IMG/VR virus record: IMGVR_UViG_2918486186_000008
Span: 892 to 64,891 of that record
Length of the DNA: 64,000 nucleotides
Source of the DNA: a virus
Strand: one strand, 5' to 3'
In this document: piece after piece, positions 3,774 to 61,818 of the stretch
Layout of the letters: each line of letters opens with the position of its first letter
Position numbering within the stretch: position 1 is the first letter of the stretch
Notes under the pieces: generated by a model
Seen by the model: the letters and a program-made list of their open reading frames with translations, nothing else
Databases searched by the model: none
What the model was told of the DNA's origin: nothing
Program-made: the position numbers and the translations under genes

Positions 3774-3809
3774 GTGCTGTGCTCCGGTCGTGAGTAAGTG
3801 CTGACTGAC

Positions 3810-3831
3810 TATAGCGCGAGAGCGTCGGGTT
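3810..3831 (-). promoter_or_regulatory. conserved bipartite promoter AACCCGA-N8-CGCTATA with downstream operator (3792-3807)
   Basis: Exact consensus match. Confidence 0.75.
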
Positions 3832-3834
3832 GCA

Positions 3835-4761
3835 TCAGGCGAGATGCGGAAGCAGCGCGACCAGGGTGACGAAGGCCATGAGCACGCCGGCGACGGCGAG
3901 CTTGGCCAACCAGGGCGACTCATTCGGTAGGCGCGGCCTGTTCACCAGCTTCGTCGGCACGAAGGCTTCGCCGAGCTTGAGGTGCTTGCTCTGCGTGGGC
4001 GCGACGGAGATGAGGACCGGCTGCTTGCCGATGGCGATGCCGAAGCCCCAGAACTGGCCTGGGTCGAGGTCGCGTAGACCCAGCGCCTCGTCGCTCTTGA
4101 GCGGGAAGCCCAGATTGTTCGCCGCGGCGTTGCGGTCAAGCACCTGCCCGACCCGGCCGACGAGCCAGGTGTTGCACTCGCCGGTGGCGTCCTTCGTGAT
4201 CTTGGCGAGCCGCTGGGTGCAGAGGATGCCGGTGAACCCGCGCTTCCGGCCCTGGCTCATCAGCGTGCAGATCGCGCGCCGAGAGGTGTCGGCCGGCCCG
4301 GACTGCGGGGCGTAGCGGTGCGCCTCGTCGATCACGACGAATGCGGGCTGCCAGAGGTCGCGCGGCTGGGTCATGAGCGCGTCGAGGAACTTGCCGATCC
4401 AGAGGCGCTGCGCGTCCATACCCTCGGTGTCGTTGAACTGGATGATGACCGAGGTCTTGGTCTCCAGGATCCACCGGGCGAGCCGGAAGGCTGCGCCGCG
4501 CGGCGCATCGGCGTGCGGGCCGCCGAAGATCACGTAGGGGTGGAGCTGGCGCAGGGTGTGGAACTCCTGCTCGGGGTCGATGATGATCTGCACCCCGTGG
4601 CCCCAGAGCTGCTCGAGGACCTTGCGCACCGTGTGCGTCTTGCCGGCGCCCGTGTTGCCGATGATCGCGAGGTGGGTGCCGGTGAGCTTGTCGGCGTCGA
4701 GGGCGATCTCCTGCCCGTTTGCGTCGTGACCGATCATTCGCGCGTTCTCGCTTGCTGTCAT
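3835..4761 (-). CDS. HerA/DUF87-like P-loop ATPase with C-terminal TM helix
   Basis: Walker A GNTGAGKT, Walker B VVIDEAH, GRKRG and TQR motifs; hydrophobic C-terminus. Confidence 0.8.
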   Translation of the reverse strand: MTASENARMIGHDANGQEIALDADKLTGTHLAIIGNTGAGKTHTVRKVLEQLWGHGVQIIIDPEQEFHTLRQLHPYVIFGGPHADAPRGAAFRLARWILETKTSVIIQFNDTEGMDAQRLWIGKFLDALMTQPRDLWQPAFVVIDEAHRYAPQSGPADTSRRAICTLMSQGRKRGFTGILCTQRLAKITKDATGECNTWLVGRVGQVLDRNAAANNLGFPLKSDEALGLRDLDPGQFWGFGIAIGKQPVLISVAPTQSKHLKLGEAFVPTKLVNRPRLPNESPWLAKLAVAGVLMAFVTLVALLPHLA

Positions 4762-4780
4762 GCGAGAATGCGCGAATGAC
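4733..4780. repeat. 8-bp periodic array forming an 18-bp inverted repeat
   Basis: ATCATTCG CGCGTTCT CGCTTGCT GTCATGCG AGAATGCG CGAATGAC. Confidence 0.75.
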
Positions 4781-5061
4781 GATCGGGGAACTACTGGCAG
4801 CGCTCGGGGTCTTCTAGGGCTGCGCGCGTCTCGTGCTTCTGCTGGGCGCGTGCGCGCTGGTGCTGGAGCACGGTGTCCCGGGTCTGCGCCCGCTTGCTGC
4901 GCCGGTTGGCGTAGGTCTCGGACGGGAAGGTGTCGTGGCCGGGGCAGCAGCCGCTGTCCCCGCGCCGGCGGCCGTAGGGCTTCACGGCTCCTCCTGGATC
5001 AGGTCGGACGGGCGGCTCTCTCCGTCCTCGATGATGGTGCCGTCCTGCGTGATGATCCGGT

Positions 5062-5818: not shown

Positions 5819-5979
5819 GAGGTCTCCTTGTTGGCTGTGGATGCGCTGTGGATATGTGGCGCGTGTCGCGCTGTGCGTCTCATCTATAGCGCGCTGTCGC
5901 TCAGATTTTCGTGGCGTGTGTAGGAACCGATTGCTAGAACAAAAAGGGAACGGAACGACTCACCATAGGTTGAAAGCGT

Positions 5980-6947: not shown

Positions 6948-6948
6948 G

Positions 6949-7679: not shown

Positions 7680-7682
7680 AAC

Positions 7683-8332: not shown

Positions 8333-8360
8333 CCGCCCTCTCCTCTGTTGCACACCGAAC

Positions 8361-8401
8361 AAGTCAGTGCTGACTTATTATAGCGAGGGAGGGCCCGGGT
8401 T
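8361..8401 (-). promoter_or_regulatory. perfect operator AAGTCAGTGCTGACTT (8361-8376) directly downstream of the conserved promoter (8379-8401)
   Basis: Read directly from the sequence. Confidence 0.8.
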
Positions 8402-8666
8402 TGTCTGAACGCTGCCCGCCCGGCCGCTCGACCAGGCCGGGGATCGCGTGCGCGCGTCGCTGAGACGCTTCGCGTGCTGCGTGCTGTCGTCGTGCGCGCG
8501 AGCGCGCCCCGACGCTGTGCGAGCTTCTGAGAGCTTGCGCGCTCTCGCCCATTCGATCATGCGCGCACGCTCGCAAGCGCTCACGAAAAGACCCGAGCAG
8601 CGGGTGCTGCGCGGGCCAGGTTCTGCCAGAGCAAGTGGGCTGCGATATCGCCCCAGCAGATCGGCG

Positions 8667-12884: not shown

Positions 12885-13085
12885 CTGTGTGTTCTCCTTC
12901 TCTGTTGCTGTTGTCGTTGCTCTCTTGCTCTCGACAGTCTCGTTATAGCTACGAGAACTCGGCGATGCGGCTGGAACGACTTGGATCAGGAAGGGAGCTT
13001 TCGCTCTTGCGCGCATGCGCTGATGCGCGCTTGCCGCCATACGGCCGGGGTCCAGCCCCGGCCGTTCGGTCACGATGTGCGAGGA

Positions 13086-14063: not shown

Positions 14064-14102
14064 AGTTATCCTGTGTATTCTACTGGTGGATCTTTGCCGT
14101 CT

Positions 14103-14143
14103 CAGTCAGTAGTGACTTATCTATAGTGAGGCGACTTCGGGGA
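14103..14143 (-). promoter_or_regulatory. operator (14103-14118) plus conserved promoter variant (14122-14143)
   Basis: CAGTCAGTAGTGACTT; TCCCCGA-N8-CACTATA. Confidence 0.65.
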
Positions 14144-16743: not shown

Positions 16744-17191
16744 TTTCGCCTCCCTGTCTGTGTGCGCGTCGCGTCAGCTCGACGTCACGACTCATTTGTA
16801 GCGACGCGACGTCGGGTTGTCACAGTCAGCGCTGACTTACCGTGCTAAACCAGCACGCTGAGGAGTGCAATGCGCTTGGCCAGTCTCATGCCACATGTGC
16901 TCAACGTCCTGCCGCACTGACGTAGGGTTGCCCGCCTTGCGAGCGTCCTGCACCACATCAAGCTCGGCGAGATACTTGAGCGGGCGCGTTTGAAACGACG
17001 CTTCGGCAATGCGCCTTTGCCTTGACCGGCCAAGCAAATTTGACGCTCTGAAATGGCCGACATCGTGAGGCTTTGCAGCGCAGCATCAGTAAATATGGAC
17101 GGCCGGTTCATGACGGAGGCTTTGAAAAAGAAAACCTCCGCTGTGATATAAATAGCACTTTACCTCGTTTCCGACATCCAGAATAAATAGA

Positions 17192-17386
17192 TTGTCGAAA
17201 TGGGAGGTCTGCATGTCGAATGCTTCAATGGGCCGCTATCCAGACAAAGTCGATCCAGATTTGGGTGAAGATGACGCTCCCGATAAGGATGAAGACAAAG
17301 AAAAAGACGAAGAGAAAGAAAAAGAGAAAAAAAGACCAGACACTGGTATCCCAAGACCTCAGAACCCTGACCGATATCCTGATTAA
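17192..17386 (+). CDS. small highly charged low-complexity protein
   Basis: DKDEDKEKDEEKEKEKK; inside the low-GC island. Confidence 0.4.
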   Translation: MSKWEVCMSNASMGRYPDKVDPDLGEDDAPDKDEDKEKDEEKEKEKKRPDTGIPRPQNPDRYPD

Positions 17387-17482
17387 TCAGCAAATTTTCC
17401 AGATCCGGCCCGCTGGGTGATTGGCTTCAGTGGGCTGATATTCGAGCGTGTGACTATCTATTTGCAGACGGATTATTTGCTC

Positions 17483-18688
17483 ATGACGATGGCTCGGCGC
17501 GTAACGATTTTGATCGTGGCCGCATTTCTCGGATCGTGCACGCGCATCGGAGTGACAAGCATAGTTGCGGAGAGACAGGATTACAACGAAGCGATTAATT
17601 ACACCTCTACGCAGCAGACTATGGCCAATATCGTTCGATCGTATAATCGGGAAAGTCCGACTTTTTTAAATGTATCGGATATCACGAGCAGCAAATCTTT
17701 GGGCGCAAACTTAAGCGGTGGATCAAGCAACATAGGGGCCATGCTGCCAATCGGCTCGCTTAGCAGCATGTTTTCTGCAAACGATCAGCCAATTGTTAAA
17801 TATACTGCGACAACTGGTTATGATCTTATAAGTCAAATTTCTGATCCAATATCAATCAATGACATATTCAAGTTGACGAGTTCTAACTCTCCCTTGCTGC
17901 CGTTGCTGGTATTCTCGACCAACAGATTTACGCCGGAGTTCGGTGATTATTTTAGGGCTATCGCGATAATCAATGCGCTCGATACGCTTGGCGCCATCAC
18001 TATGCAACAAGCGGATGACGGTGTTGTATCGATTAAGTTCGACGAGCGAGGGTTCGTTTCCAAGGCGGTATCTGATAACCGAGAGGACGCAAATATTGCT
18101 TGTTTTAATTCAGTAAGCTCATCTGGTTTGGCTCGCGGCCTTTGGGCTCAGTTGCTTTCTATTTATAAGCAGCGCAGTCGCAATGAAATACTTCTATTCG
18201 CTGGGCTCACAAAAAGGCGCGAGACGTATATTGTGACACGCTCAGCACTTGGCGCTCTCAGTGTCAGTGGCAATGACCATGACATCGCATTTCTGCCGGA
18301 AATCGAAATAAATCGTATTATACTTGAAAATAAACAACAAGATAACTGCTTACAAGATTTCTATTTCATGGGAAGAGGAGATTTGGGTGTTGCCGAGCTT
18401 TGGTCTTCCTATTACAGGTTGATGGCGTCGAATGAACCGAGTGCCCAAGCCCAATTCGAGTTTCGAAAGCTGGCTGGGCAGCGCGCGTTGATTTTGATCC
18501 AAACTACAAATCATCCTGTCTACGGTGCATTTGCCAGCTACGAGAGAAATGGTGTCTGGTATTCTATCAGGGATGATGACCGAATTTCGAAGAGAAACTT
18601 CTCTCTTTTGAACACTTTGTTGACCATACAAGCCGTGCCCGCCGCTCAACCGACGCCTACGCTCACATCAATCCAGCTTCGGAATTAG
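17483..18688 (+). CDS. uncharacterised lipoprotein
   Basis: Lipobox FLGSC; RQDYNEAI...ANIVRSYNRESPTFLNVSDI resembles a widespread hypothetical lipoprotein family; low GC. Confidence 0.7.
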   Translation: MTMARRVTILIVAAFLGSCTRIGVTSIVAERQDYNEAINYTSTQQTMANIVRSYNRESPTFLNVSDITSSKSLGANLSGGSSNIGAMLPIGSLSSMFSANDQPIVKYTATTGYDLISQISDPISINDIFKLTSSNSPLLPLLVFSTNRFTPEFGDYFRAIAIINALDTLGAITMQQADDGVVSIKFDERGFVSKAVSDNREDANIACFNSVSSSGLARGLWAQLLSIYKQRSRNEILLFAGLTKRRETYIVTRSALGALSVSGNDHDIAFLPEIEINRIILENKQQDNCLQDFYFMGRGDLGVAELWSSYYRLMASNEPSAQAQFEFRKLAGQRALILIQTTNHPVYGAFASYERNGVWYSIRDDDRISKRNFSLLNTLLTIQAVPAAQPTPTLTSIQLRN

Positions 18689-18749
18689 TTATCTTGGCAT
18701 ATTGCTGAATTTTTCGGATCGCCAAGGATCAACGGTTAGGTGGTTCGGT

Positions 18750-22264: not shown

Positions 22265-22290
22265 AGCCTGGTCCTCCCTACCAAGGCGCT

Positions 22291-22334
22291 GTGTCATCAC
22301 TGACTTATCTCATATAGCGCACGACCCTCGGGTT
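22291..22334 (-). promoter_or_regulatory. operator plus conserved promoter AACCCGA-N8-CGCTATA
   Basis: Operator 22291-22306, promoter 22313-22334. Confidence 0.75.
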
Positions 22335-22400
22335 TTTTCGCGGCTTGCGCCGACACCTTCTAAGGAGAGCCCCAGAGCGCGAGCCCCGGGGCCTTCGCAG

Positions 22401-22673
22401 TTAATAACTGATACAGCTAATGCTCGAAGAGTCGCATCCGCGCTGCATCAAGCAGGATTTATACTCAACGCAACAAGATGTCTGCATCGCCTTATTGTTT
22501 CCAGCACGCTGTTGGCAGCTATTGTTGCGACTATTGCAGATATTTTGACTCTCAGACGAGCAGGACTGAGCTAAGGTCCATTTGCTCTTCGGCGCGGACG
22601 AAATCTCTGCCAAAGCCGGGAAGCTCGAAACCAAAGCAAACACCGTCGCGGTGATGAGAGAAGCTCGCTTCAT
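22401..22673 (-). CDS. exported 8-Cys small protein
   Basis: Signal peptide MKRASLITATVFALVSSFPALA; C-x7-C-x6-C-x13-CC-x5-C-x5-C-x6-C; low GC. Confidence 0.65.
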   Translation of the reverse strand: MKRASLITATVFALVSSFPALAEISSAPKSKWTLAQSCSSESQNICNSRNNSCQQRAGNNKAMQTSCCVEYKSCLMQRGCDSSSISCISY

Positions 22674-22940
22674 TGTAGTGACCCCCATTCTCAGATGGCG
22701 ACATATGGAGATCACTGATTTCAGTCCTAAGCAAGGCTCAATTTGAGGTATATGCCCCAACGGGACGTCAGACGATCTGCCTTTAGGTTCCATTGGCTCT
22801 TGCGAAACGGTTACACCCTGCTAGTCATCCTCAATGGGCGCTCAGCTACGCCCTTTACCCCGCCGTGTCAGTCGTTTAGGCGAGATCTACCCGCACCCCG
22901 TGCCTGAAGAAGAACCCGACCAACAAGCTGCATATCAGGT

Positions 22941-22984
22941 GGGTCAGTGCTGACTTATCATCCATAGCGCGCGCAGTTCGGGTT
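22941..22984 (-). promoter_or_regulatory. operator plus conserved promoter
   Basis: GGGTCAGTGCTGACTT; AACCCGA-N8-CGCTATG. Confidence 0.7.
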
Positions 22985-23039
22985 TTCTCAGGAACTGAGC
23001 GCTATCGTCGCTCGGCCAACGACGAACCTGGAGTCCAAG

Positions 23040-23456
23040 ATGCCAAGGAGGCCGGTGCAGCCAGCACAGCCAGCGCCCGTAAGGCAAGCAGAGCCTGTTC
23101 AAATACGGAGCCGTGATGCGGTTAAAGCATTCTGTAATTATTGGGAAACCAGCGAGCGCGGAAGCCAGCAGGTAGAACGCTTCGAGCTATTTGAAGCCGA
23201 AGTTGGCATCTCGTGTGGAGGCGAGCCACGCGATTTTTTGACCGATGTCAAAATCAACCCCGATCAGGAGGTTGAGTTGATTGGATCCGGTCAGTTAAGG
23301 ACGAATGATTATCATTTGCTCTTCAACCCGCTTTATCAGGTCTATGAATTTGACGAAGGAACCGGACGACTGCGAATCTCAGGAACCGGTCTGCCCACAA
23401 AGGGCTACATGAAAGGTCCTTACACTGTCGAAATCTATCCAAGCCACAAGAGATGA
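23040..23456 (+). CDS. hypothetical protein (low-GC)
   Basis: 138-aa ORF with SD GGAG, followed by a hairpin at about 23464-23489. Confidence 0.6.
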   Translation: MPRRPVQPAQPAPVRQAEPVQIRSRDAVKAFCNYWETSERGSQQVERFELFEAEVGISCGGEPRDFLTDVKINPDQEVELIGSGQLRTNDYHLLFNPLYQVYEFDEGTGRLRISGTGLPTKGYMKGPYTVEIYPSHKR

Positions 23457-23494
23457 TACGAAAAAGGCCCCGCATCTCTGCGGAGCCTCTATCG

Positions 23495-24087
23495 TCAGAC
23501 CAGCTCGTAGCTGATCCCGTGCTTGCAATTCAGCCCTTGATCCAAAATCCAACTACGGTGCCAATCGCACCGTAGGCCCACTGTTTGTGTTCTGCGTCAT
23601 AAATATCTGATAGTATGATCCAGAAGGCCACGGCTAGCACGATAAGACTAACCAGCGGCTGCATTACATTTTTTACAAACGTTGCGTTGAATTTTACATC
23701 ATCGCGCGAGGGCCGCTTCGTCTTTGCAGGAGGCTTCTTGTCTTCCAGGTGATATACATATTCGGTGCCGTCGATGTTGGTTTCAATGGTGTCAGGCGGC
23801 GGGTTTTTGGGCGCGCCTGAAACCTCCGATGTGTTCCATGATGCTTTAACAATTGCGATATCAAAAACACTCGCTTGCCTTAGCGGTGTGTATAGGCGGA
23901 TAATTAGAAGCGCGATGATTGTGAATGCGAATAAAATTGCCGGAACATAGCTCATTGTTTTTCCGTCCAATCAGACGAGGCGATCAGATTTGGCAGCATC
24001 GGCAACAAACGAGTGTCGAAATTAAGCCTCACGGCTTGGACCGTGAGACTCTGGTTTCAAACCAGTTCGTAGCTGATCCCGTGCTTG
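23495..24087. mobile_element. inserted cassette flanked by a 31-bp direct repeat (duplicated gene end)
   Basis: 23495-23525 versus 24057-24087, 2 synonymous mismatches; both encode KHGISYELV-stop on the minus strand. Confidence 0.75.
23530..23955 (-). CDS. membrane protein (three predicted TM helices)
   Basis: Hydrophobic N-terminal helix and two C-terminal helices; low GC. Confidence 0.65.
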   Translation of the reverse strand: MSYVPAILFAFTIIALLIIRLYTPLRQASVFDIAIVKASWNTSEVSGAPKNPPPDTIETNIDGTEYVYHLEDKKPPAKTKRPSRDDVKFNATFVKNVMQPLVSLIVLAVAFWIILSDIYDAEHKQWAYGAIGTVVGFWIKG

Positions 24088-24215
24088 AGGATGGTCTCGA
24101 CCAGGCGGTCGGGGTCCACCGGGATGCCGAGGCTCGCGTTGAAACGCGCCAGGGCGATGTAGGGGCGGACCCACCATCGCTGGCGGATCCGCAGGCGGCA
24201 CTCCATCGTCGCCAT
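24057..24215 (-). CDS. small hypothetical protein
   Basis: MATMECRLRIRQRWWVRPYIAL...KHGISYELV; ATGA overlap with the nrdJ stop. Confidence 0.55.
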   Translation of the reverse strand: MATMECRLRIRQRWWVRPYIALARFNASLGIPVDPDRLVETILKHGISYELV

Positions 24216-28965: not shown

Positions 28966-28989
28966 CTAGAGCGGCAGCAATTTTCAGCA

Positions 28990-42044: not shown

Positions 42045-42314
42045 TGTTCTGCTGCTTTCGTCTTTGGCGATTTGCGCGGAGCGCTGCTGCCGGTGCTTGG
42101 TTGCTTGCTAAGACTTTCATCTGTCGCTGCTCTGTTATAGCGATCACCTGTTGGGTTTTTCGCTAATTCGCGCATTCTCGAATGGGAGAATACGGGAATG
42201 GGTGCCCTCAGAAGGGCCGGTGCCGGGGCGCCGGCAGGGCCGGGCGCGGCTTCTTGATCCGGGAGCGGATCCAGAACAGGGGTCCGAGGACCAGGAGGGC
42301 GACGCCGACGACCA

Positions 42315-43157: not shown

Positions 43158-43321
43158 GGCTGCCTCCGCTGAGTGAGTAAGTGCTGACTGATCTTTTATA
43201 GCGAGCGCGCGTCGGGTTTTGCGTGGGTCGCGCTGGCTTCTGGTGTGGGTAGCTATGGCCATCCACAGCAAGATAAGTCAGCGCTGAATTGGTTTGAAAA
43301 ATCGACGTTTGTGCTATCTTA

Positions 43322-43735: not shown

Positions 43736-46700
43736 TCAGTCGCTCATGAGGGCGGCGGCCACCTCGAACACCTCGTTGAGCTTCGCCTGCTTGGAGGCGT
43801 CGTGGAAGATCTCGCCCGGGGCGAAGCCGATCACGAGATTGGCGTCGAGGCCCTTGTGGTAGACGACCTCGCCGGCGACCTCGGACGCCTTGCCCTTGAA
43901 GTCGGGGATGAACTGCCGGACCGTGGTCGAGCCGAGCAGCACGATCACCGGCGGCTTGAGGATCTCGATCTCGCGGGCGAGGTAGGGCCCGTAGGTGGCG
44001 ATCTCGCTGGCCGAGACCTGCTTGCCGGCCTTGGGCCGCTTGATGAGGGCGGTCCAGTAGGCGTCGGCCCGCGACAGGTCGTTGGCGTCGAGCGCCTCCT
44101 GGACCCACTCGCTGACGCAGTAGGAGCCGCGGTTGTCGTAGCTCATGCGGCCGGAGGTGTCCTCGCCCTTCGAGGGCGCGTCGAGGATCACCATGAAGCG
44201 CATGTTCTTGCCCGTGGTCATCTTCACCGGCATGCCGTCCTCGGCGCAGCCGTCCGAGTAGTCGGCGAACACCTCCAGGATCTTGATCCGGCTGTCCCGG
44301 TCGCGGTGCATCTCGCGGCTGATCGGGACGTGGGCCGTGATGAGCCCCGGGATCAGCTCGCGCTGGTCCTTGATCCGGTCCGGGTGGCGTCGAGGTAGCT
44401 GGCCTGGCTCGATGTCGGCGAAGGCGCCGACCAGGTCGAGGAGCCCGACGTGCTTGACGTTGCAGCGCCGCCGCTCGACGCGGGCGGTCAGGTCCTCCTT
44501 CGACTTGAACGGGCCGGCCCCGTCGCCCCGCGCCTTCAGGATGGCCTCGGTGGTCAGCGCCGAAATGCCCTTGATCCGGTTGAACGGCATGCACAGCCGC
44601 GTGTCGGTCACGATCTCGAACTGGTTGGTCGAGTGGTTGATGTCGGGCAGATCCACCTCGATCCCCATCCGCTCGGCGTCCTTCATCAGGCCCGGCAGCT
44701 TGTCCTGGGGCATCAGGGTGAGCGCCGCCGCGAAGAACTCCACCGGGTAGTGGGTCTTGAGATACATCGCCTGGTAGGAGATCAGCGTGTATTCGACCGA
44801 GTGGCTCTTGTTGAAGCCGTAGCCGGCGAAGCCCTCGATCTTGTCGAACAGCAGACCGGCCCACTCGGGCGTGCAGTCCACGGTCGCGACACAGCCCTCG
44901 ACGAACTTGCCGCGCTCCTTCTTCATCTCCTCGGGGAGCTTCTTACCCATGATCTTGCGGAGCTTGTCGGCCTGCGCGCCTGAGTAGCCGGCGATCACCT
45001 GAGAGGCCTTCATGACCTGCTCCTGGTAGACGAACACGCCGTAGGTCGGGCTGAGCACCGGCTCGAGGAGCGGGTGGTCATAGTCCACGCTCTCGATGCC
45101 CTGCTTGCGCTTCCAGTAGCTGTCCATCATGCCCGACTCCATCGGGCCCGGGCGGTAGAGCGCGGTCGCGGCCGTGATGTCGTCGAAGGTGATGGTGCCG
45201 TCCTTGCCCAGCTCCTTGAGCAGGCGCCGCATGCCGCCGCCCTCGAACTGGAAGATGCCCGTGGAGATCGCGCGGGCGAAGTTGTCGAGCACCTTCGGCT
45301 CGTCGAGCGGGATCCGCAGTAGGTCGACCTTCTTGCCGCGCCGCTTGCGGATGTAGTCGAGGGTGAGCGCGATCAGGTCCAGGGTGTTGAGGCCCAGGAT
45401 GTCCATCTTCACCAGGCCCTGGTCCTCGACGATGCGCTTGTCCCAGCACACCACCGGCAGATCCGGGACCGGCTCCTCGCCCTCCTTCGGCTTCGAGGGC
45501 GCCTTGCGCCGCTCGATGACGGCCCGCTCGACCAGATCGACGCCGCCGACGACGACGCCGGCCGCGTGCTGCGAGAGGTTGCGCAGGCAGCCTTCGAGCT
45601 TCTTGGCCGTGTCCCAGATCTCGGGGTTGCCGGCCGCGAACGCGCCGATCTCCGTCACCTCTGCGGCGGCCTCGGCGAGCTTGACCGGCTGGCCGTGCTT
45701 CTTCGGCACGAACTTGGAGCAGCGATAGAGCTCCTCGTTGAGGCCGAACACGCGGCTCACGTCCCGGATCGCCGAGCTGGCGCCCAGGCGCCCGTAGTTC
45801 GAGACGCCGGCCACGCGGGCGGTGCCATACTTGCGGATGAGATACTGGAACACCTCGTGCCGGCGCTCGGACATGAAGTCGAGGTCGGCGTCGGGAAGGT
45901 CGATACGCTCGGGGTTGATGAAGCGCTCGAACAGGAGCTCGAAGCGGAGCGGATCGCAGTCGGTGATCCCCATCAGGTAGGCGACGAGCGAGCCGCCCAC
46001 GGAGCCGCGGCCGGGGCCGACCAGGATCCCCTGGCTCTTGGCCCACACGACCACGTCCTGCACCAGGAGGAAGTAGCCCGAGAAGCTGAGGTTCTTGAGC
46101 ACGGTCAGCTCGTAGCGCAGCCGCGGCTGGTAGACGTCCTTGAGCTCCTGGTTCGACGGGCGGTGCCCGAACACCGGGGCGGTGAAGCGCTCGTGCCAGC
46201 CCTTGGTGCAGGCCTCGACGACCGCCTTGAACTCGTCGGGCGCCATGATCGGCAGCGAGGGCGCGGACTTGGCCCAGGCGAAGGTGACCATGTCGACGAG
46301 GCGCGCGGTGTTCTTCATGCCCTCGGAGAAGCGCCCCTTGGTCGGCACGCCCCGGAACTCCTCGAGCCGCTTGGCGGCCGCCTTCACGTCGCGCACCAAC
46401 TCCTGCAGGGTCTTCGGATGCAGGTCGCGCACCGGGTTGAACCACGCCCAGGGCTCGGTGAGCTTCACGTTGCGGGTGACGGCGTTCATGATGTCGGCCG
46501 CGTCGGCGCTGCCCTCCTCGTAGAGGGCGGGCGCGGCGACCAGCGTCGGCAGGCCGAGCTCCTCGGCGAGCTGGAGCGCCTTGACGTTCTGGGTGTCCCA
46601 GTAGGGCGTGTCGATCGGCACCAGCGTGCAGAACGTATTAGACGCGCTCAGAGCGTCGGAAATCTTCGTGAGTATCTGTGACGCTGACTTGTGCGCGACG

Positions 46701-47143
46701 ACGCTGTGCGCGTCGCTCGTCGCGATTGCGACGTCTGCCGCAGTCACGTTCGCAAGCTCTGCATAGAGATCGTCGAAGGAGAGCTTGGCGTTGTTGTAGA
46801 AGCGCTCCTCGGAGTTGGCGAGCGACAGCAGGCGGTAGAGCGCCATCAGCCCGGCCTGGGAGAGAACATACCAGGTCACGAAGAACTCCGGCGGCGCCTT
46901 CTTGTCCTCCTTGGTCTTGCGCCAGGTGACGTCGTCCACGAGCCGGAGCCGGCAGCCGATGACGGGCTTGATCCCGGCCTTCTGCGCCTTCTGGGTCAGC
47001 TCGATCAGACTGGTCGCCGACATGGTGTCCGTCACGCCGACGGCCTTGGCGCCGGCTCCAACGGCCCGGTCCACGAGGCTCTCGATCGACAAGATGCTCT
47101 CGCCGATCGAAAAATTGGTGCGAGCCGCTAGGACCGCGTGCAT
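43736..47143 (-). CDS. dnaE: DNA polymerase III alpha subunit with a C-terminal uracil-DNA-glycosylase-like domain
   Basis: PHP ([12 protein letters not shown]), [42 protein letters not shown] and YGFNKSH; true start MHAVLAART at 47143. Confidence 0.95.
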
Positions 47144-48167: not shown

Positions 48168-48794
48168 TCAGCGAAGGATCTGCCGCGCGAGGCCTTTGAC
48201 CTCGCCGTAGATGCGGTTGCGTTCGACCCGGTCCGCACCCATCAGGTCGAGGACGAGCGAGCCGGTGATGTGGCTGGGCACGCCGGTGCGGATCCCGCGG
48301 GCGTTGGCGAACTCGGCCCGGGCCTGGATCGCGGTCATCTCCTCGTAGAGCGCCGGAGGCGGGTTCGCGAGGAGCTCGACGAACTGGCGCGCCTCGGGGG
48401 AGAGGAGGGCGATGTTGCGCTCGAACTCCTGGGCGTCGCCGAGCACGTCGTCCTGGAGCGGGCTGCCGTCGGCGATCACCTCGTGCAGGTCGGAGCCGTC
48501 CTCGTCGCCGTGATCCTCGTCGAGGTCGAGGGCGTTGGAGTGGCCGATCTGCCGGTCGATCCAGGCGTTGATGTGGTTGCGCATGCCGAGCTGGAGGTAG
48601 GCCCCGAACGGCACGCCCTTGGTCGGGTCGAACTTGTCCCGGGCGATCACCCAGGCGAGCGACAGCTCCGAGACCAAGTCGGCCAGGAGCACGGTGCGCG
48701 CGCCGGCCGCGTGCGCCCGCTTCAGGTAGCGGTAGGCGGACCGCTCGACGACCTTGCTCCAGTCGCCCCATTGGATCGGGTGGGTGTCGCGCAT
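48168..48794 (-). CDS. phage-encoded sigma70-like factor (putative)
   Basis: Region-2-like DLVSELSLAWVIARDKFDPTKGVPFGAYL..GMRNHI; region-4-like C-terminal HTH. Confidence 0.65.
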   Translation of the reverse strand: MRDTHPIQWGDWSKVVERSAYRYLKRAHAAGARTVLLADLVSELSLAWVIARDKFDPTKGVPFGAYLQLGMRNHINAWIDRQIGHSNALDLDEDHGDEDGSDLHEVIADGSPLQDDVLGDAQEFERNIALLSPEARQFVELLANPPPALYEEMTAIQARAEFANARGIRTGVPSHITGSLVLDLMGADRVERNRIYGEVKGLARQILR

Positions 48795-48798: not shown

Positions 48799-50025
48799 TT
48801 ACCCGAAGTAGCGCTGCGCGAGCTGGGAGGCGGCCTCGCGGTCGACCCGGCTCATGCGGTTCATGAAGCCCTGGCGCAGGCCGGCCGAGTAGTCGGCGCC
48901 GCGCATCACGCCGAGCCGGCCCGCGGTGATGAGCTCGCGGGGCGAGATCGTCATGCCGATCCGGCCGCCCTTGAACGCCTCGCGGATGTCGTTGGCGAAC
49001 TTCACCAGCTTGGCGGCATCGTCCTTCTTCACGCGCGCCTGGCTGACGATGACGGCCGTCTCCACGTCGGGCTCCATGTAGGGAACCTCCTCGACGATGT
49101 GCATGCGGGAGTAGTTCGCGGCGTTCTGGATCTGGGTGCCCTGGTAGAGACCCGTTTCGTCTCCGCCACCGTTGGTGTTGCCGGTCGCCACGAAGCGGAA
49201 GTTCTTGTGCGGGCGGATCACCCGCATGTCGGGCGGCGCGTCCTTGATGAACAGCGGCTTGCCCTCGAGGATCGGCTGGTAGACCGACAGGACCGAGGGG
49301 AGGGCGAAGTCATACTCGTCGGCGCAGTAGACGTAGCCGTTGAGCATGGCGATCGTGAGCGGGCCGGGCTGAAACACGGTCTCGGTGGAGAGCACCGCGA
49401 TGTCCTCGCCGGTCGCCTGGTTCTTCGTGACGCGCTCGACCGCCTGGACGACATACTGCCCGACGATGTGCGCCTCTTCGGTGTTGGCGGTGTGCTGGAC
49501 CCGCATGAACGGCCGCTTGGTGCGGGCGCAGACTTGCTCGAAGGCGGTGGTCTTGCCGGTGCCGTGAAAGCCCCAGAAGTAGACGTTCATGCCCATCTCG
49601 AGGCCCATGAGCGCCGTCTTCACCAGGTCGAGGTTGAACACGTAGTTCGGGTCGACGTCCGGCACGAGGGCGAGCGCCTCGGCGTCGTGGCCCTTCATCA
49701 CCGAGATCAGGATCGGCTCGCCGCGCTTGTTCTTGGTCGCGGGCACGTCGCCGGTCTCGAACACGGCCGCCAGCGGCATTTTGTCCACGAGCTGTGTGAC
49801 GGTGCCGTCCTCGGCGGCCTTCTTCTGCTCCACGAGGCGCTCCTTCTGACGCTTCTCGGCGGCCGGCGACAGCAGCGGCGCGTCGGGGTAGGTGGCGCGG
49901 TAGCGCTCCACCGTCCATTCGGGGTGGTGCGTCTTCAGGTGCGCCTGGATGACATGGACGCGGGCCCCGTCGAGCAGGCACTCGATCTTGCCGTCGGACA
50001 GGGCTGCGGGGGCGGGCGTGTTCAT
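48799..50025 (-). CDS. MoxR/CobS-like AAA+ ATPase with an N-terminal C2H2-like finger
   Basis: GFHGTGKTT, CADEYD and FVATGNT motifs; N-terminal IECLLDG...IQAHLKTHH. Confidence 0.88.
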   Translation of the reverse strand: MNTPAPAALSDGKIECLLDGARVHVIQAHLKTHHPEWTVERYRATYPDAPLLSPAAEKRQKERLVEQKKAAEDGTVTQLVDKMPLAAVFETGDVPATKNKRGEPILISVMKGHDAEALALVPDVDPNYVFNLDLVKTALMGLEMGMNVYFWGFHGTGKTTAFEQVCARTKRPFMRVQHTANTEEAHIVGQYVVQAVERVTKNQATGEDIAVLSTETVFQPGPLTIAMLNGYVYCADEYDFALPSVLSVYQPILEGKPLFIKDAPPDMRVIRPHKNFRFVATGNTNGGGDETGLYQGTQIQNAANYSRMHIVEEVPYMEPDVETAVIVSQARVKKDDAAKLVKFANDIREAFKGGRIGMTISPRELITAGRLGVMRGADYSAGLRQGFMNRMSRVDREAASQLAQRYFG

Positions 50026-53478: not shown

Positions 53479-53764
53479 TGTATGATCGCTTCGGTTTCGA
53501 TTTTCTCGATGCTCTTGCGATCTCGATATAGCAGCTCGAGCTCGGGTTGCGATGCAGGTATCGCGCCGGAGTCTACAAGCCTGAATTTCACGGATAAGTC
53601 AACACTGACTTAGGTTGTGCCTAATAAAATTTCTGTGTCATGCCATCTGTAGCCCTAGCCTGACGCTTCGGGTATGCGACTCGTAGCGCCCGGTGGTGTT
53701 AAGGTGGCCTAGCGAAGGCCCCGAATCAAATTGCCACCTGGGGTTGTTAGAATTTTACTGAAGG

Positions 53765-56422: not shown

Positions 56423-57322
56423 TCAGCGACCCAGCACTCGGTTGATCCTCTGGAGGAGACCTTGGCGCCGGCCCGACCATGCCTGCTCGGACTCCGGAAG
56501 CGGCACGTCCGGCAGGATCGGCGGATCATCCCGGTGCATGGCCTCGGCGATCTCGCCGGGCTTGCGGCCGATCAGGAAGTTGCCGCAGGCGAGCTCGGAC
56601 TGGGCGGCCGGCGGCAGCGCCTTCACGATGTGAGTCCACTCGGGCCCCTGCGGATCGAGCGACACGATCTCGTGGATCTTCATCTTGGCGACGCGCTTAC
56701 GCTCGGTCTCGGGCAGCCGGTAGAGGAGCATCTGGAGGATCCAGCGCACCGTGAATGCCGCCGTCTGGTGATCTCCGGTGAAGGCATCGACGACCTCGAA
56801 GCCCTTGTCCTGAAAGATCGAGGTCAGGCCCTCGCGCGTCGCATTGAAGAAGTGGCTCGGGTAGCCGTGGACCGGCTGGAGGAACGGCCAGTCGATCATG
56901 ACCCAGCCGCCCGGCTTGAGCATCCGGTGCATCTCCTGAATCACCTGCCAGGGCTCGGGGACGTGCTCGAGGACCGCGAAACAACCGATGCCGTAGAGCG
57001 ACTGGTCCTTGATCGGGTAGAAGCCCGTCGGGTCGACGATCAGGTCGGCCGAGTTGGACGGGTAGACCTCGAGGTAGAGGCAGTTGTCGTAGGTCTTCTC
57101 CCGCAGGCCGCAACCGAGATCCAGGAACAGCTCGTCCGGGTGCTGTTGGATCATGTGGTCGAACTGAGCGACGTTCGCGCCAGCGCTCTCGGACTGATAC
57201 TGACTCAGATCGAAGTGCCGATCGCCGGCGATGATCGGGAAGGCGCCACTCGGGTGCTCGTCGAGCGGCGCCTGGAAGATGCGCCGGAACCGCTCGTATT
57301 TCTCGTGCCCATCCATGCTCAC
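56423..57322 (-). CDS. class I SAM-dependent methyltransferase
   Basis: LDLGCG, AVLEHVPEP, RMLKPGG and HGYPSHFF motifs. Confidence 0.88.
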   Translation of the reverse strand: MSMDGHEKYERFRRIFQAPLDEHPSGAFPIIAGDRHFDLSQYQSESAGANVAQFDHMIQQHPDELFLDLGCGLREKTYDNCLYLEVYPSNSADLIVDPTGFYPIKDQSLYGIGCFAVLEHVPEPWQVIQEMHRMLKPGGWVMIDWPFLQPVHGYPSHFFNATREGLTSIFQDKGFEVVDAFTGDHQTAAFTVRWILQMLLYRLPETERKRVAKMKIHEIVSLDPQGPEWTHIVKALPPAAQSELACGNFLIGRKPGEIAEAMHRDDPPILPDVPLPESEQAWSGRRQGLLQRINRVLGR

Positions 57323-58230
57323 CTCCGGCGCAGCCGACTGAGAAGGCTCTGGGGGCGCGGCGTGGGTGCTGCCGGCTCAGGATCCGCGGCGTAGTTCTGG
57401 CGCCAGGGGTCGACGAGCGAGGAGGCATCGAAGGTGCGCGCGGCCTCGGTCCCGCGCCTGATCGCGATGATCGAGGGCCGGGTCGCGGTCACGGTGCCGG
57501 AGGCGTCGTCGTGGTGGTCGGCGTGGGCCAGGGTGTAGTGGACGTCAAAGCCCAGGTTGTCGAAGATCTTGTTGTAGAGCCCGCGCGAGAGGTGCCACCA
57601 GACGTAGTTGATCTGCGGGTTGTCGAGCGGCGTGATCGGCCGCATCGTCAGGTCGTCCAGCGGTGTGACGTCCGTGAAGGGGATGAGCACCGCCTCCCTG
57701 GCGAGCCGGGCCCAGGCGCCGATCGCGTAGACCGGGTCAGACAGGTGCTCGACGATGGCGCCGGCCATCACGACGTCGAACATCTGCTCGGGCCACTCGT
57801 AGAGCTCGGCCATCGGCGCGTAGACGCAGCGCGCCCGGCTGCCGAACTTGTGCCAGGCGTGCCACCAGGAGTTCTTGATGGGCACGAGGTTCTCGCGCTC
57901 CCACATCGCCCGGTAGCCGCGAATGTCCTTGTAGGAGAGGCTATCGGCGAACGGGAAGTGCCGGAACTCGTGGGTCGAGGAGGCGTCGAGGCCTGTGACC
58001 GTCGCGCCTGCCAGCTCGGCGTGGAACGCGAGGTAGCCAGAGGCCGTGCCAACATCAAGCACTGACTTACTTTTTAGGTCATAGCCGCCGATGTATGTGG
58101 CGAAATTATCGATCGTCCAGGAACCTTTGACGCGCTCGAGGCCCGGGAAGACCATCGAGTGATACCAGTAGCACCGGGCGGTCGGGTCAAACGGGCGCGG
58201 TGTCTCATAGCGCGGCACGTCTCCACTCAT
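57319..58230 (-). CDS. class I SAM-dependent methyltransferase
   Basis: VLDVGTASGYLAF, TGLD and FDVVMAGAIVEHLSDP motifs. Confidence 0.88.
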   Translation of the reverse strand: MSGDVPRYETPRPFDPTARCYWYHSMVFPGLERVKGSWTIDNFATYIGGYDLKSKSVLDVGTASGYLAFHAELAGATVTGLDASSTHEFRHFPFADSLSYKDIRGYRAMWERENLVPIKNSWWHAWHKFGSRARCVYAPMAELYEWPEQMFDVVMAGAIVEHLSDPVYAIGAWARLAREAVLIPFTDVTPLDDLTMRPITPLDNPQINYVWWHLSRGLYNKIFDNLGFDVHYTLAHADHHDDASGTVTATRPSIIAIRRGTEAARTFDASSLVDPWRQNYAADPEPAAPTPRPQSLLSRLRRR

Positions 58231-58539
58231 GGTTTAATCCTCCTGCCTGCGTTTTGTCTGCAAACAAGTAGATAAAACGTAAAAAAATTATTGTCTCGCC
58301 TCAACCGATAGGTGTGCTAGGGCATCGCTCGGTATAAAATGAAACACCACAACTAAATTTGGCGTATTTCCTGGGATGTTGGAAAATCGATCAAGATTTT
58401 GGAATTTTCTCCCGGAAGTTGCAAAAAGGGGCGACCCCAGGAGAGGCCGCCCCGCACACACACAGAAAGGAAACCCGAACACGTCGGTCCCACCCGACGG
58501 TTCTACGGGTCTCCTAACGGTAAGTCAACGCTGACTTGC

Positions 58540-59115: not shown

Positions 59116-59146
59116 CCTGTCTTCGTAGGTCAGTGCTGACTTACCG

Positions 59147-60505
59147 TCAAGCGGCGACCTTCAGAGCCGAGTCCTTATCGTCCCGGAACCTTACGAAGCG
59201 GGGATGACGAAGCGATCCATCCGGTGTCACCTCGTGATACTCCACCTCGATCAGCCGCCCGATGTAGCTGTCCGGGTCCTTGTCGATCGTCTCCAGCAGC
59301 TCGTGCGAGAAACCGCCGCCCACGCTGACGCTGACCCCGGCCCGGTCGACCACGAAGCCCGCGAACTTCCCTTCCAGGCGGGTGCCGGCCTTCCCGGTGT
59401 AGTGGCCGGTGATCCGGAGATCCTCCGTTTCCTGCCCCTTGATCTTCATCCAGAGGTGGCCCTTCTTCTTCACGTAGTGGCCGTCCCAGGGCTTCACCAT
59501 CGCACCCTCAAGGCCGTTGGCCCGGTGCTCGGCGTAGATGGCCTGGATCTCCTCGTGGGAGTTCGCCTCGCGTAGGTCTGTCACCTGGATCGGGGCGCCC
59601 TCGGGCGCGCAGCGCACCACGAACTCCAGCACCTTGCGCCGGATCTTGAGCGGGACCTTCCACTCGATCTGGCCGGTGTCGCGCATGATGGCGTAGGGCA
59701 CGATGTCGAACACGTTCAGGATCGTATCGGTCGCCTCCTCGTCCTTGCGGCGCAGATCGCCCGAGGTCGTCTTGTAGGAGCCGGACACCGCCTCGCCGTC
59801 GATCGCCGCCGACGGACCAGCGTCGCCGCCCAGGACGTCCCAGATGAAGCGGCGCACCTTGTCGGTCATCCCCGGGCAGCTCTCGGCGTTCTGGACCTTG
59901 GCCCGGGCGTTCTCGACCATCTGGACCAGGTAGGGGCCGGCCCAGTCGAGCTGCGGGAAGTGGTTGCCCACGCGCGAGAACGCCTTCGAGACCCCGGCCG
60001 AGACCAGGCTCATGCCCCGGAAGCCGTCGAGCTTGGGCTCGATCGGGACCGGGAACGTCTTGATGCGCTTCTCCTCGTAGGCCTTGGACAGCATCAGGTC
60101 GAAGGTCGGCACCGTATTCGGCAAGACCAGGTTGATGGTCTTCTCGGAGATGCCGCAGCGCAGGTCCTTGGCCAGGATCCGGCGCAGGACCTCGCAGGAG
60201 GCCGGCTCCAGGTCGACGAGCATGCGCTCGACCGCGACCTTGGCGGCGTTGCCGGTCAGCTCGCGCTTGGAAAGCTGGTGCAGCATCACCCAGGGCTGCG
60301 GGCTGGTGTGGTCGAAGCTGAGCCGGCCGGCGCCCTTCACCTGGGGCGGCGTGATGCCGAAGGTGATGAACGGGTCGTAGGCGAGCTGCACGACGCGCTG
60401 GACGGTCGGGTCCTCGATCTTGGACCGGAGCAGGTCCTCCTTCGCGTTGCGCGAGGTGGTGGCGCCGATCTCCTGGAGGAGGCGGTAGACGTCGATCGAG
60501 TTCAC
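59147..60505 (-). CDS. ATP-dependent DNA ligase
   Basis: EPKLDGFRG (KxDG), IDGEA, EGAMVK, KIK and SLRHPRFVRFRDDK motifs. Confidence 0.93.
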   Translation of the reverse strand: MNSIDVYRLLQEIGATTSRNAKEDLLRSKIEDPTVQRVVQLAYDPFITFGITPPQVKGAGRLSFDHTSPQPWVMLHQLSKRELTGNAAKVAVERMLVDLEPASCEVLRRILAKDLRCGISEKTINLVLPNTVPTFDLMLSKAYEEKRIKTFPVPIEPKLDGFRGMSLVSAGVSKAFSRVGNHFPQLDWAGPYLVQMVENARAKVQNAESCPGMTDKVRRFIWDVLGGDAGPSAAIDGEAVSGSYKTTSGDLRRKDEEATDTILNVFDIVPYAIMRDTGQIEWKVPLKIRRKVLEFVVRCAPEGAPIQVTDLREANSHEEIQAIYAEHRANGLEGAMVKPWDGHYVKKKGHLWMKIKGQETEDLRITGHYTGKAGTRLEGKFAGFVVDRAGVSVSVGGGFSHELLETIDKDPDSYIGRLIEVEYHEVTPDGSLRHPRFVRFRDDKDSALKVAA

Positions 60506-61206
60506 GCGGCCTGGTCCTTCTGTGCTGCGGCCCGGGCGCGGGCCATCTCGAGGAGCGACATGCCCTTGCCGGCCGGAGCCGGTGCGGGCTTCGGGGTGGG
60601 CTTGGGCTGCGCAGGGGCGGCCGCAGGCGGCTTCGGTGCCGGTGCGACAGCCTTGGGCGCGGGCGCGGGAGCTGGCGCCTCGCTGGCCCTGGCGACGGCG
60701 CGGGTCACGGCAGCCGACAGGTCGCCCGACAGCGCGGCCGCCTTCAGCCCGTCGTCAGCGGCCGGCGCCGACTCCTCGCGCTTCACCGCGGCGAGCTTCA
60801 CGCCCGCGGTCTTCTTGGCCGCCCGGGGCTTGCCGGCACTGGCCGCCTCGTTCGCCGCCCGGATCGCATCGGCTTCGGCGCCCTCGACCGCGTAGCGGTT
60901 GACCGCGTCGTCGCGCACCAGGATCGGGCGCACCGCCTCGAGGATCTCACCCTTGAGCGGGAGCACCTTCGGCTCGGCCGAGAAGTAGGGATCCTCGCCC
61001 GTGCGGATGATCGCCCGGTTGATCCAGTAGACCGGGCACTTCGAGGACATCAGGCAGGCCTGGCAGCCGCGCCGCTCGTCGGGCTTGCGGCCGCGAGCCA
61101 CCTGCTGCTCGAGCTCCAGGCAGTCGGCGAGCCGCGTCTCGGCCCCGAAGATCGGGCAGACGATCAGGGCCTCGTTCTTCGGCGAGTAGGTCTTGATGAG
61201 CGTCAT
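60502..61206 (-). CDS. hypothetical protein, Cys-rich N-terminus and Pro/Ala-rich tail
   Basis: VCPIFG...DC...RGCQACLMSSKCP. Confidence 0.65.
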   Translation of the reverse strand: MTLIKTYSPKNEALIVCPIFGAETRLADCLELEQQVARGRKPDERRGCQACLMSSKCPVYWINRAIIRTGEDPYFSAEPKVLPLKGEILEAVRPILVRDDAVNRYAVEGAEADAIRAANEAASAGKPRAAKKTAGVKLAAVKREESAPAADDGLKAAALSGDLSAAVTRAVARASEAPAPAPAPKAVAPAPKPPAAAPAQPKPTPKPAPAPAGKGMSLLEMARARAAAQKDQAA

Positions 61207-61728
61207 CTACCAGGTCCCCCAGTTCTCGTTGTGGGCGACCTCGTCGGCGACGGACGGCCCGGCCGGCTCCACGAAGTCGGTGAACTTGTGCCGGGGCTGG
61301 TAGCCCTTGCGGACGATCTTCCCGTCGCGGTCGAACTCGGGTTGCGGATCGGGAGTGCGCACGCCGGTCGTGTCGGCGCCGGGCGCGATGTGCTCGAGGT
61401 TGTCCGGGCCGAGCTTGGACAGGTAGAGGATGCCGAGCTTCTTGCGGAAATCGGCCTCGTCATCGCACTGCACGATGGTGTCCCGGGCCGGGTCGTGCTC
61501 GTAGCCGTTCCGCTTCTTGTCGCGGTCCTTGCTCTCAAACTCAGCGACGGCCGCGTCAGAGTGGTGGAACGCATCCACCCGCATCTGGCCTTCGGCGTTC
61601 TTCTTGCCCCAGCGCTGGATGACGATCGCGCGGCCCTCGCCGTTCACGATCAGCACTTGGTGATATTCCTTGGTGCCCTGTCGATGCAGCATCGACTTCT
61701 TGCGCAGGGCGATCGGGTAGACCGGCAT
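61207..61728 (-). CDS. WGR-like domain protein
   Basis: YHQVLI...IQRWGKKNAEGQ...A..EF..K..DK.RNGY; promoter 61772-61793 and operator 61797-61812. Confidence 0.6.
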   Translation of the reverse strand: MPVYPIALRKKSMLHRQGTKEYHQVLIVNGEGRAIVIQRWGKKNAEGQMRVDAFHHSDAAVAEFESKDRDKKRNGYEHDPARDTIVQCDDEADFRKKLGILYLSKLGPDNLEHIAPGADTTGVRTPDPQPEFDRDGKIVRKGYQPRHKFTDFVEPAGPSVADEVAHNENWGTW

Positions 61729-61818
61729 GGCTCCTCTCTGCTGTGCGTGTGTCTGTGTCTCGCTCGCTGACTATAGCGAGCGTGCGTCGGTGTTTCGTGT
61801 CACCACTGACTTATTGCG

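Follow-up and report, generated by a model that had tools for sequence, protein, structure and literature searches.

Promoters of the extracytoplasmic function (ECF) type, such as those read by Bacillus subtilis SigW (TGAAAC-N16-CGTATA), and the KorB OB sites at RK2 promoters, which form the global operator network of a large plasmid, are the described systems closest in layout to the promoters analyzed here. With respect to sequence make-up, the closest parallels are phages that avoid short motifs, and behind such avoidance there is usually some molecular enemy or some molecular tool. Phages avoid restriction sites, and Pseudomonas aeruginosa phages targeted by type I-F CRISPR systems show a genome-wide depletion of the CC protospacer-adjacent motif (PAM) (PMC12174588). 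We analyzed a window of 64,000 nt with a G+C (GC) content of 64%, comprising bases 892-64891 of the 82,458-bp virus record IMGVR_UViG_2918486186_000008 from IMG/VR, which is classed as a provirus with a completeness of ~73%. The element belongs to a large group of 115-120-kb phage-plasmids of Methylobacterium and Rhizobium, and the motif avoided in it is a bare dinucleotide step: GG and CC are excluded from its promoter cassettes. As in the phages mentioned, a very short motif has been selectively removed from both strands. Whereas in the described cases a motif is statistically depleted across the whole genome and its cognate system is known (PMC12174588), the near-absolute exclusion in the element is limited to regulatory cassettes, three patches and one operon, the genome being normal elsewhere. 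CmdT, the effector of the CmdTAC defence system, ADP-ribosylates GA dinucleotides of single-stranded RNA at the adenine and thus demonstrates that recognition of no more than a dinucleotide enables an anti-phage effector to block gene expression (PMC11618068). Its target differs from the step avoided here, as GA is the second most enriched dinucleotide of the leaders, after AG, and the avoidance is strand-symmetric and includes untranscribed spacer DNA.

The closest relative of the element was a 116.8-kb circular plasmid of Methylobacterium oryzae (NZ_CP090351.1) with 93-96% identity, and plasmid pAMS5a of Methylobacterium sp. AMS5 (NZ_CP006993.1) showed ~79% identity. Genes for DnaE, RecA, SbcCD, ribonucleotide reductase, CobS/CobT-like proteins and a sigma factor form a core that the element has in common with Rhizobium phage RHEph10 (NC_034248.1) and Sinorhizobium pLM21S1; the latter has been published as a phage-plasmid that is of the RepC type and related to RHEph10 (PMC5537653). 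Gene calls and start codons were obtained with a heuristic based on the GC content of third codon positions (GC3) and on Shine-Dalgarno (SD) sequences; by the GC3-based call, nearly all genes of the element are located on the minus strand. Transcription starts were deduced from the promoter motif, and the RNA data consisted of assembled contigs only.

On the gene (minus) strand, the repeated promoter reads gAAAC-CC(C)GA-N9-cGCTATAnn. Copies with invariant spacing occur 18 times in the 82-kb contig and 16 times in pAMS5a, and there are ~15-18 promoter-leader cassettes per genome. The GG/CC-free run opens directly after the -35 CC(C), spans the 14-nt spacer, the GCTATA hexamer and the 5′ leader, and in most cassettes closes exactly at the GG of the SD sequence. 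The conserved motif makes up ~20 nt of each cassette. About one third of the cassettes (12 of 34 by pattern match) carry the full palindrome AAGTCAGCACTGACTT after the hexamer, and several others have a half-site or a degenerate copy. The leader following this operator is A/G/C-rich and T-poor, usually up to the SD sequence.

The promoters resemble those of the ECF type in their AAC-containing -35 region, their short, GC-rich spacer of fixed length, a CGTATA-like -10 region and, as a candidate cognate factor, a small sigma factor encoded next to the regulon. They differ in a spacing that is ~2 nt shorter than in the SigW consensus and in a -35 region extended by CC(C)GA. The sigma factor of the element (208 aa, 48168-48794, minus strand) matches Sigma70_r2 with 29.4 bits, which is over the cut-off, whereas its match to the ECF superfamily model is weak (20.2 bits with a cut-off of 42.9) and no match to region 4 was reported. 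By its sequence, it is a candidate reader of the gAAAC-CC...GCTATA promoters. We know of no description of GG/CC exclusion at ECF promoters. A gene for a CobS/MoxR-like AAA+ protein (48799-50025, minus strand) adjoins the sigma factor gene; its N-terminus showed a sub-threshold match to the ROS/MucR zinc finger (E 5e-4; 20.5 bits with a cut-off of 25.4) and might possibly serve as a DNA-binding head. As in the KorB/OB network, one 16-bp palindrome of the AAGTCAGCACTGACTT type recurs at many promoters of the element, near genes of the ParB family. In the element, however, this putative operator lies directly downstream of the -10 box, and it accounts for at most ~16-20 nt of the GG/CC-free run in those cassettes that carry it.

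The avoidance of GG and CC had been noticed in a preliminary description of the window, in which ten stretches at promoters were said to lack both dinucleotides while staying fairly GC-rich. On re-reading, nine of the ten contained neither, and the remaining one (3786-3826) has one GG at its first two bases. Their GC content ranged from 0.47 to 0.74, and the 14 GG/CC given for a line of coding DNA (31621-31680) were recounted as 14. The placement at promoters held for eight stretches, which coincide with the repeated cassette; 1603-1653 is non-canonical and 8442-8506 lies within a separate periodic patch. The statement that the pattern is more than AT enrichment was borne out as well, since the exclusion is specific and non-random in the spacer, the -10 region and the initial transcribed region and is not found in host upstream regions. 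The GG/CC exclusion in the promoter cassettes is thus confirmed.

A plain count of GG/CC-free runs was not decisive. In the 82-kb contig, 20 runs of at least 40 nt with a GC content of at least 0.5 were counted; first-order Markov simulations gave 12.8 on average and 20 at most. Tests anchored at the promoter motif are convincing because the definition of this motif does not depend on the sequence that follows it. Summed over the 18 cassettes of the contig, the stretch between the hexamer and the first GG or CC came to 505 nt compared to 129.5 ± 28.4 nt when the same 60 nt were mononucleotide-shuffled (z = 13.2), and for the 16 cassettes of pAMS5a it was 554 nt compared to 110.3 ± 24.8 nt in mononucleotide shuffles (z = 17.9). 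The depletion therefore remained significant when base composition was controlled for. In 10-nt bins, the GG/CC frequency dropped from ~0.14 to 0.00-0.03 between positions -10 and +30 relative to the T of TATA and was back up by about +40.

The 14-nt spacers were GG/CC-free in 27 of the 34 cassettes, with 1.7 expected at their GC content of 0.70, and the variable N9 core of the spacer contained 12 GG/CC where 41 were expected. The clean spacers indicate that the constraint acts on DNA that is never transcribed. From the deduced transcription start to 16 nt before the start codon, the 5′-untranslated regions contained 34 GG and CC instead of ~112, and most of these residual doublets came from one doubtful untranslated region of 119 nt. 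Depletion affected GG (15 versus ~47 expected) and CC (19 versus ~65 expected) without asymmetry, and the idea that SD decoys alone are avoided in the leaders, for which a GG/CC asymmetry had been sought, was dropped. Leaders without the palindrome were equally clean, as 22 such leaders comprising 718 nt contained not a single GG or CC.

For comparison with other genomes, we determined the share of upstream regions whose longest GG/CC-free run exceeded that of 99% of composition-matched shuffles (p ≤ 0.01). This share was 19% for the element, 14% for the M. oryzae plasmid, 12% for pAMS5a, ~10% (37 of 385) for ~45 relatives in IMG/VR fetched through DnaE and 5% for the central 50 kb of RHEph10. 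The unrelated Sinorhizobium phage phiLM21 reached 3% and 400 kb of a Methylobacterium chromosome 1%; this host DNA was reached via loci of IS5 transposases, and the host control covers all upstream regions rather than mapped promoters. The pattern is therefore not shared by the upstream regions of the Methylobacterium host, and the survey identifies it as a trait of the element family; it characterizes neither the host nor high-GC non-coding DNA as such. Overall, the observed/expected (O/E) ratios of GG and CC were 0.80-0.86 in coding and non-coding DNA of the element (0.86 for non-coding DNA as a whole), and GGCC, CCGG and CCCGGG are common elsewhere in it.

A comparison of the zones of 17 orthologous cassettes in the element and the M. 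oryzae plasmid revealed 47 substitutions, of which only ~2 created a new GG or CC, whereas 27.9% of the possible single substitutions in cassette zones would do so. The cassettes are hence held GG/CC-free by purifying selection that is still ongoing. Orthologous cassettes of pAMS5a have substantially different leaders that are nevertheless GG/CC-free, for example upstream of the gene whose product begins with MPVYPIA and at pAMS5a position 6322, the counterpart of the last cassette in Table 1. Cleanness is also not tied to one promoter type, as it was found in RHEph10 cassettes with a different promoter (TTGcgT-CCC-N12-GCTAtT) and in sigma70-like promoters of pAMS5a (see below). Some cassettes lack any GG before the start codon, namely those at contig position 66229 (window coordinate 65294, outside the window) and at pAMS5a positions 65145 and 86883; their ribosome-binding site (RBS) is a purine run of the GAGAG type, and the exclusion can thus override the canonical SD sequence.

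Besides the promoter cassettes, three GG/CC-poor patches of ~150 nt were found (Table 1), one of them intergenic, one inside an sbcC-like gene and one inside dnaE, and all three recur at orthologous places in pAMS5a, the counterpart of the intergenic one being located at 77598-77747. The sbcC patch (155 nt) contains one CC and no GG, encodes a segment free of Gly, Pro and Trp, and is kept in pAMS5a and in the M. oryzae plasmid, where the sbcC site was the one scanned. In 1000 synonymous permutations, which preserve the codons, the lowest 150-nt window had 14 GG/CC for sbcC and 7 for dnaE, whereas the real genes have 1 and 2, respectively; six other large genes were unremarkable in the same test. 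The dnaE patch is located at an offset of ~345-545 nt in the gene and occurs at the same offset in ~17 of ~50 relatives, down to a DnaE identity of 42-57%, and is absent from the rest. Where present, its core is conserved at the nucleotide level, even in its rare synonymous codons GCA and TCT, and an inverted repeat, GACGTCGC-N11-GCGACGTC, lies within this core, while patch-less relatives encode Gly and Pro in the corresponding DnaE segment. Across the relatives, no link was found between the dnaE patch and promoter depletion, as ~10% of upstream regions were significant in both groups. The three patches share no meaningful alignment; the sbcC and intergenic patches gave only a weak gapped local alignment, and the sbcC and dnaE patches none.

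The intergenic patch (8442-8592) and a stretch at 4731-4785 are GG/CC-free, 8-bp-periodic arrays at gene junctions with a lag-8 identity of 0.48-0.55 and motifs of the ATTCGCGCAT or GCGCGCATG type, distinct from the promoter motif. When 8-bp periodicity was sought in the leaders, it was absent. Compared to first-order Markov simulations, the leaders of the 34 cassettes showed an excess of self-identity at two lags, 4 (z = 6.7) and 11 (z = 4.4), signals that may arise partly from the palindrome and from short repeats of the GAGC or ACAC type.

In relatives, the exclusion extends to whole operons. Positions 56733-58263 of pAMS5a comprise 1531 consecutive nt with a GC content of 0.53 and without a single GG or CC. 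This tract holds two open reading frames (ORFs) of 205 and 127 aa, which are 3-periodic, lack Gly, Pro and Trp and have no Pfam match, and it also spans the sigma70-like promoters of these ORFs, which carry operator palindromes, as well as the ribosome-binding sites, which lack GG. The M. oryzae plasmid has an unpurged orthologue of one of the ORFs (44971-45579 in its sequence piece; 59% aa identity). At the CC sites of this orthologue, pAMS5a has CT (19), CG (9), TC (8) or GC (7), and these mixed replacements indicate selection by any available route rather than a single mutational process. Deaminase-type hypermutation was accordingly ruled out as the origin of the purged operon, because transitions and transversions are mixed. 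RHEph10 has a GG/CC-poor tract of the same kind (98993-100056; 1064 nt) whose minus-strand ORF (188-204 aa) shows distant similarity to a pAMS5a ORF (23% identity, pairwise E 5e-4), in a region where the record annotates plus-strand genes. The purged two-gene operon of pAMS5a and RHEph10 and the cassettes obey one strand-symmetric GG/CC rule that is conserved across distant relatives. The operon, however, is a single protein-coding cassette, whereas the rule also covers the promoter-leader cassettes throughout each genome, including their untranscribed spacers.

Taken together, the exclusion is strand-symmetric, covers untranscribed DNA, is family-wide and independent of promoter class, and reaches into coding DNA at discrete places. 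Since the same rule applies in the sbcC and dnaE patches and in whole operons of relatives, we infer one common cause that acts at the GG·CC step and is not specific for promoters. The account we consider most probable, at somewhat less than an even chance, is that regulatory DNA is kept clear of some putative activity that reads GG/CC steps. Such an activity, of the hosts or of the elements, would read the step by modifying, cutting or binding it, and its substrate would be duplex or transiently single-stranded nucleic acid. A hit would be locally disabling but not lethal. Targets would have been cleared where a single hit would silence a whole operon, that is, in promoters, operators, leaders, embedded cis-elements and one small operon, and the doublets left would be the functionally indispensable ones, the CC(C) of the -35 region and the GGAG of the SD sequence. 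It might come from the alphaproteobacterial hosts as an anti-phage effector, or the elements might encode it as a weapon or modifier. More tentatively still, the putative activity may act wherever G follows G or C follows C, and the family may have written its single-point-of-failure sequences (the ~15-18 cassettes, the cis-elements in dnaE and sbcC and the Gly/Pro/Trp-free operon) without that step, in which case the operon may encode a countermeasure. We know of no CmdT-like effector directed against GG/CC. With CmdT as a precedent (PMC11618068), it is plausible that a dinucleotide is purged from critical sequences as a counter-strategy. The cassettes would provide a ready assay for a GG/CC-reading activity, if there is one, and the purged operon would be a place to look.

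Several observations weigh against such an activity. The rest of the genome is full of GG and CC, so that the activity must be non-lethal or local in its effect. In phiLM21, which infects a related host but is not related to the element, few upstream regions are depleted, and this speaks against a general host factor. The M. oryzae plasmid, although the closest relative, has the unpurged orthologue of the operon gene, and the CC(C) of the -35 region and the GG of the SD sequence remain exposed. The deduced transcription starts and the heuristic gene calls also belong here. No candidate enzyme was found: a six-frame search of five family members (the contig, NZ_CP090351.1, NZ_CP006993.1, NC_034248.1 and a 100%-complete 119-kb relative; three of the five are complete records) detected no C5 methyltransferase (PF00145), N4/N6 methyltransferase (PF01555) or TGT/DpdA (PF01702) domain. 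Likewise, neither Csy3, as a marker of type I-F CRISPR with its CC PAM, nor Cas9 was detected above the cut-off in any of 146 Methylobacterium genomes.

The main rival explanation invokes intrinsic signal hygiene. GG/CC would be reserved for the -35 AAC-CC(C), which the sigma factor of the element would recognize, and for the SD GGAG, which is recognized by 16S rRNA, and doublets in between would be cleared so that RNA polymerase and ribosome register uniquely and no CC of the leader pairs with the SD sequence. This agrees with the exact boundaries of the clean run, which starts after the -35 CC(C) and mostly ends at the SD GG, and with the sigma factor encoded by the element; in addition, the unpaired fraction of the RBS was marginally higher than in shuffles (0.549 versus 0.527, p = 0.06). 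Nevertheless we regard it as rather unlikely. CC is depleted like GG in the leader and GG like CC in the spacer, so that each part needs two separate reasons, and clean cassettes occur with other promoter types, too. Moreover, the sbcC and dnaE patches and whole operons with GG-less SD sequences are purged coding DNA, and host leaders use the same SD sequence although host upstream regions show no depletion. Should the cause be intrinsic to the sigma factor-RNA polymerase complex or to the ribosome, promoter spacers and leaders of high-GC bacteria would follow a sequence rule that is new, and promoter design in Methylobacterium could make use of it. In both cases, the transcription units of the element are cleanly mapped by the cassettes.

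The first mechanism put forward in the preliminary description, a bulky modification of the element's own DNA in GG or CC context from which protein-binding DNA must stay free, would explain the strand symmetry, the restriction to DNA read by proteins, the family specificity and the embedded patches. We consider it improbable, as it has no gene support in the five family members, although the search covered known domain families and novel enzymes may differ. In pLM21S1, too, a published survey detected no gene for a methyltransferase (PMC5537653). The M. oryzae plasmid has two genes with methyltransferase domains; these are of the generic class I type (Methyltransf_23/11), adjoin repC and are not family-wide. 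The DUF5131/TcmP island (28.1-30.8 kb), an accessory insertion of low GC content, has no annotated counterpart in pAMS5a. Furthermore, fully purged protein-coding operons would not obviously be required by such a modification.

Still less probable is a cause at the RNA level only, with leaders selected as unstructured, RNase-resistant or Rho-resistant. Their composition (A 0.33, C 0.27, G 0.27, T 0.13), A-rich and U-poor, and their CA/GA-rich low complexity would fit such selection. The minimum free energy of the leaders, however, was no weaker than that of shuffles of the same composition (-14.52 versus -14.13 kcal/mol, Wilcoxon p = 0.52), and selection for an unstructured leader was dropped for this reason. 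Avoidance of Rho or of pyrimidine-C steps was dropped as well, because UC was not depleted (O/E 1.34-1.40) and such avoidance would therefore not be specific, and the untranscribed spacers are purged to the same degree as the leaders.

The second mechanism of the preliminary description was that promoter opening favours alternating purine-pyrimidine stretches, Z-prone or flexible; this idea, here widened to easily melted DNA, did not stand up and is very improbable. Strand-symmetric O/E ratios of the steps were low for the homopolymer steps GG/CC (0.06) and AA/TT (0.62) and ~1.5-fold enriched for CG (1.53) and GC (1.56), which would fit this mechanism. AG/CT (1.40) and GA/TC (1.25) were also enriched, whereas CA/TG and AC/GT were at ~1.05-1.08, which shows that the tracts are not purine-pyrimidine alternating; only 57% of the leader steps were of the purine-pyrimidine or pyrimidine-purine type, compared to 48% expected. 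Nearest-neighbour duplex stability, calculated with the parameters of SantaLucia 1998, was about that of the shuffles both for the whole zone (-1.461 versus -1.453 kcal/mol per step) and for the core (-1.361 versus -1.375), with z of about ±2.5 and a difference below 1%, and easier promoter melting was dropped on these grounds. The depletion also runs far past the melted region and into ORFs.

Escape from CRISPR PAMs (CC for type I-F, NGG for Cas9) or from restriction sites containing GG/CC has hardly any probability in our view: the CC-PAM depletion reported for P. aeruginosa phages (PMC12174588) is a precedent and repeated promoter and operator copies would be attractive multi-copy targets, but the Methylobacterium genomes yielded neither Csy3 nor Cas9 (restriction enzymes were not surveyed), GG/CC-containing palindromes such as GGCC are common elsewhere in the element, and as a cut anywhere is lethal, local avoidance gives no protection. 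Equally improbable, and refuted as far as the present tests go, is the absence of any selection on GG/CC, the pattern being a by-product of base composition, of duplicated-cassette ancestry or of motifs that lack GG/CC by chance; the conserved motif, the recurrent palindrome and the only modest excess in the raw run count would fit it, but palindrome-less leaders are just as clean, all shuffles were composition-matched, the N9 core is depleted too, and new GG/CC are still avoided among the substitutions.

Table 1. Promoter cassettes and GG/CC-poor patches in the window (window positions; -, minus strand)
Feature	Position	Strand	Remarks
GG/CC-free upstream region without canonical promoter motif	1602-1654	-	gene 889-1644; first example of the preliminary description
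Promoter cassette, -35 CCC 3827-3829, hexamer TATAGT 3808-3813, operator-like palindrome, leader	3787-3829	-	GG/CC-free 3787-3827
Promoter cassette, variant -35, hexamer 5883-5888	5859-5913	-	GG/CC-free 5859-5913; leader of gene starting at 5818
Promoter cassette, hexamer 8377-8382 followed by palindrome AAGTCAGCACTGACTT	8356-8399	-	spacer does contain CC/GG
Intergenic GG/CC-poor patch, ~150 nt, GC content 0.58-0.74, 8-bp and 2-bp periodicity	8442-8592		upstream of promoter at 8382
Promoter cassette, hexamer 12942-12947	12897-12964	-	65-nt GG/CC-free run up to SD (GGAG); gene starts at 12884
Promoter cassette, ACTATA variant, palindrome, hexamer 14120-14125	14098-14142	-	
Promoter cassette, GCTACA variant, hexamer 16795-16800	16754-16817	-	61-nt GG/CC-free run up to SD GGGAGG; start codon 16743
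Promoter cassette, palindrome, hexamer 22311-22316	22286-22333	-	
Promoter cassette, GCTATG variant, palindrome, hexamer 22961-22966	22943-22983	-	
Promoter cassette, operator half-site, hexamer 27973-27978	27949-27995	-	start codon 27940
GG/CC-poor patch inside sbcC-like AAA ATPase gene	31676-31830	-	1 GG/CC per 150 nt
Promoter cassette, hexamer 33641-33646	33617-33663	-	run up to SD; start codon 33610
Promoter cassette, weaker -35, hexamer 34786-34791	34772-34808	-	
Promoter cassette, long leader, hexamer 42134-42139	42100-42156	-	
Promoter cassette, operator half-site, hexamer 43195-43200	43167-43217	-	run up to SD GGAGG; start codon 43157
GG/CC-poor patch inside dnaE (PHP region)	46622-46778	-	2 GG/CC per 150 nt
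Promoter cassette, hexamer 53525-53530	53494-53547	-	51-nt GG/CC-free run
Promoter cassette, hexamer 61770-61775	61734-61792	-	56-nt GG/CC-free run up to SD; start codon 61728

With respect to the remaining gene content, an IS5-family transposase gene is located at the very start of the window (18-647, plus strand). Its product shows 78-85% aa identity to copies in many Methylobacterium genomes, and the gene probably marks the edge of the element or a disruption in the record. A metatranscriptome contains a relative at ~94% identity in the form of assembled contigs, from which transcription starts and strand are not readable. The core genome is broken up by low-GC islands at 17200-18700, 22300-24400, 28100-30850 and 34900-36600. 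According to the annotation of the M. oryzae plasmid, they include a HEPN/Toprim-associated gene, DUF5131 and TcmP (GMT-like winged helix-turn-helix) genes and a plus-strand ORF of 571 aa. The islands look like accessory or defence insertions. Many of the AT-rich GG/CC-free runs in the element stem from these islands and are unrelated to promoters.

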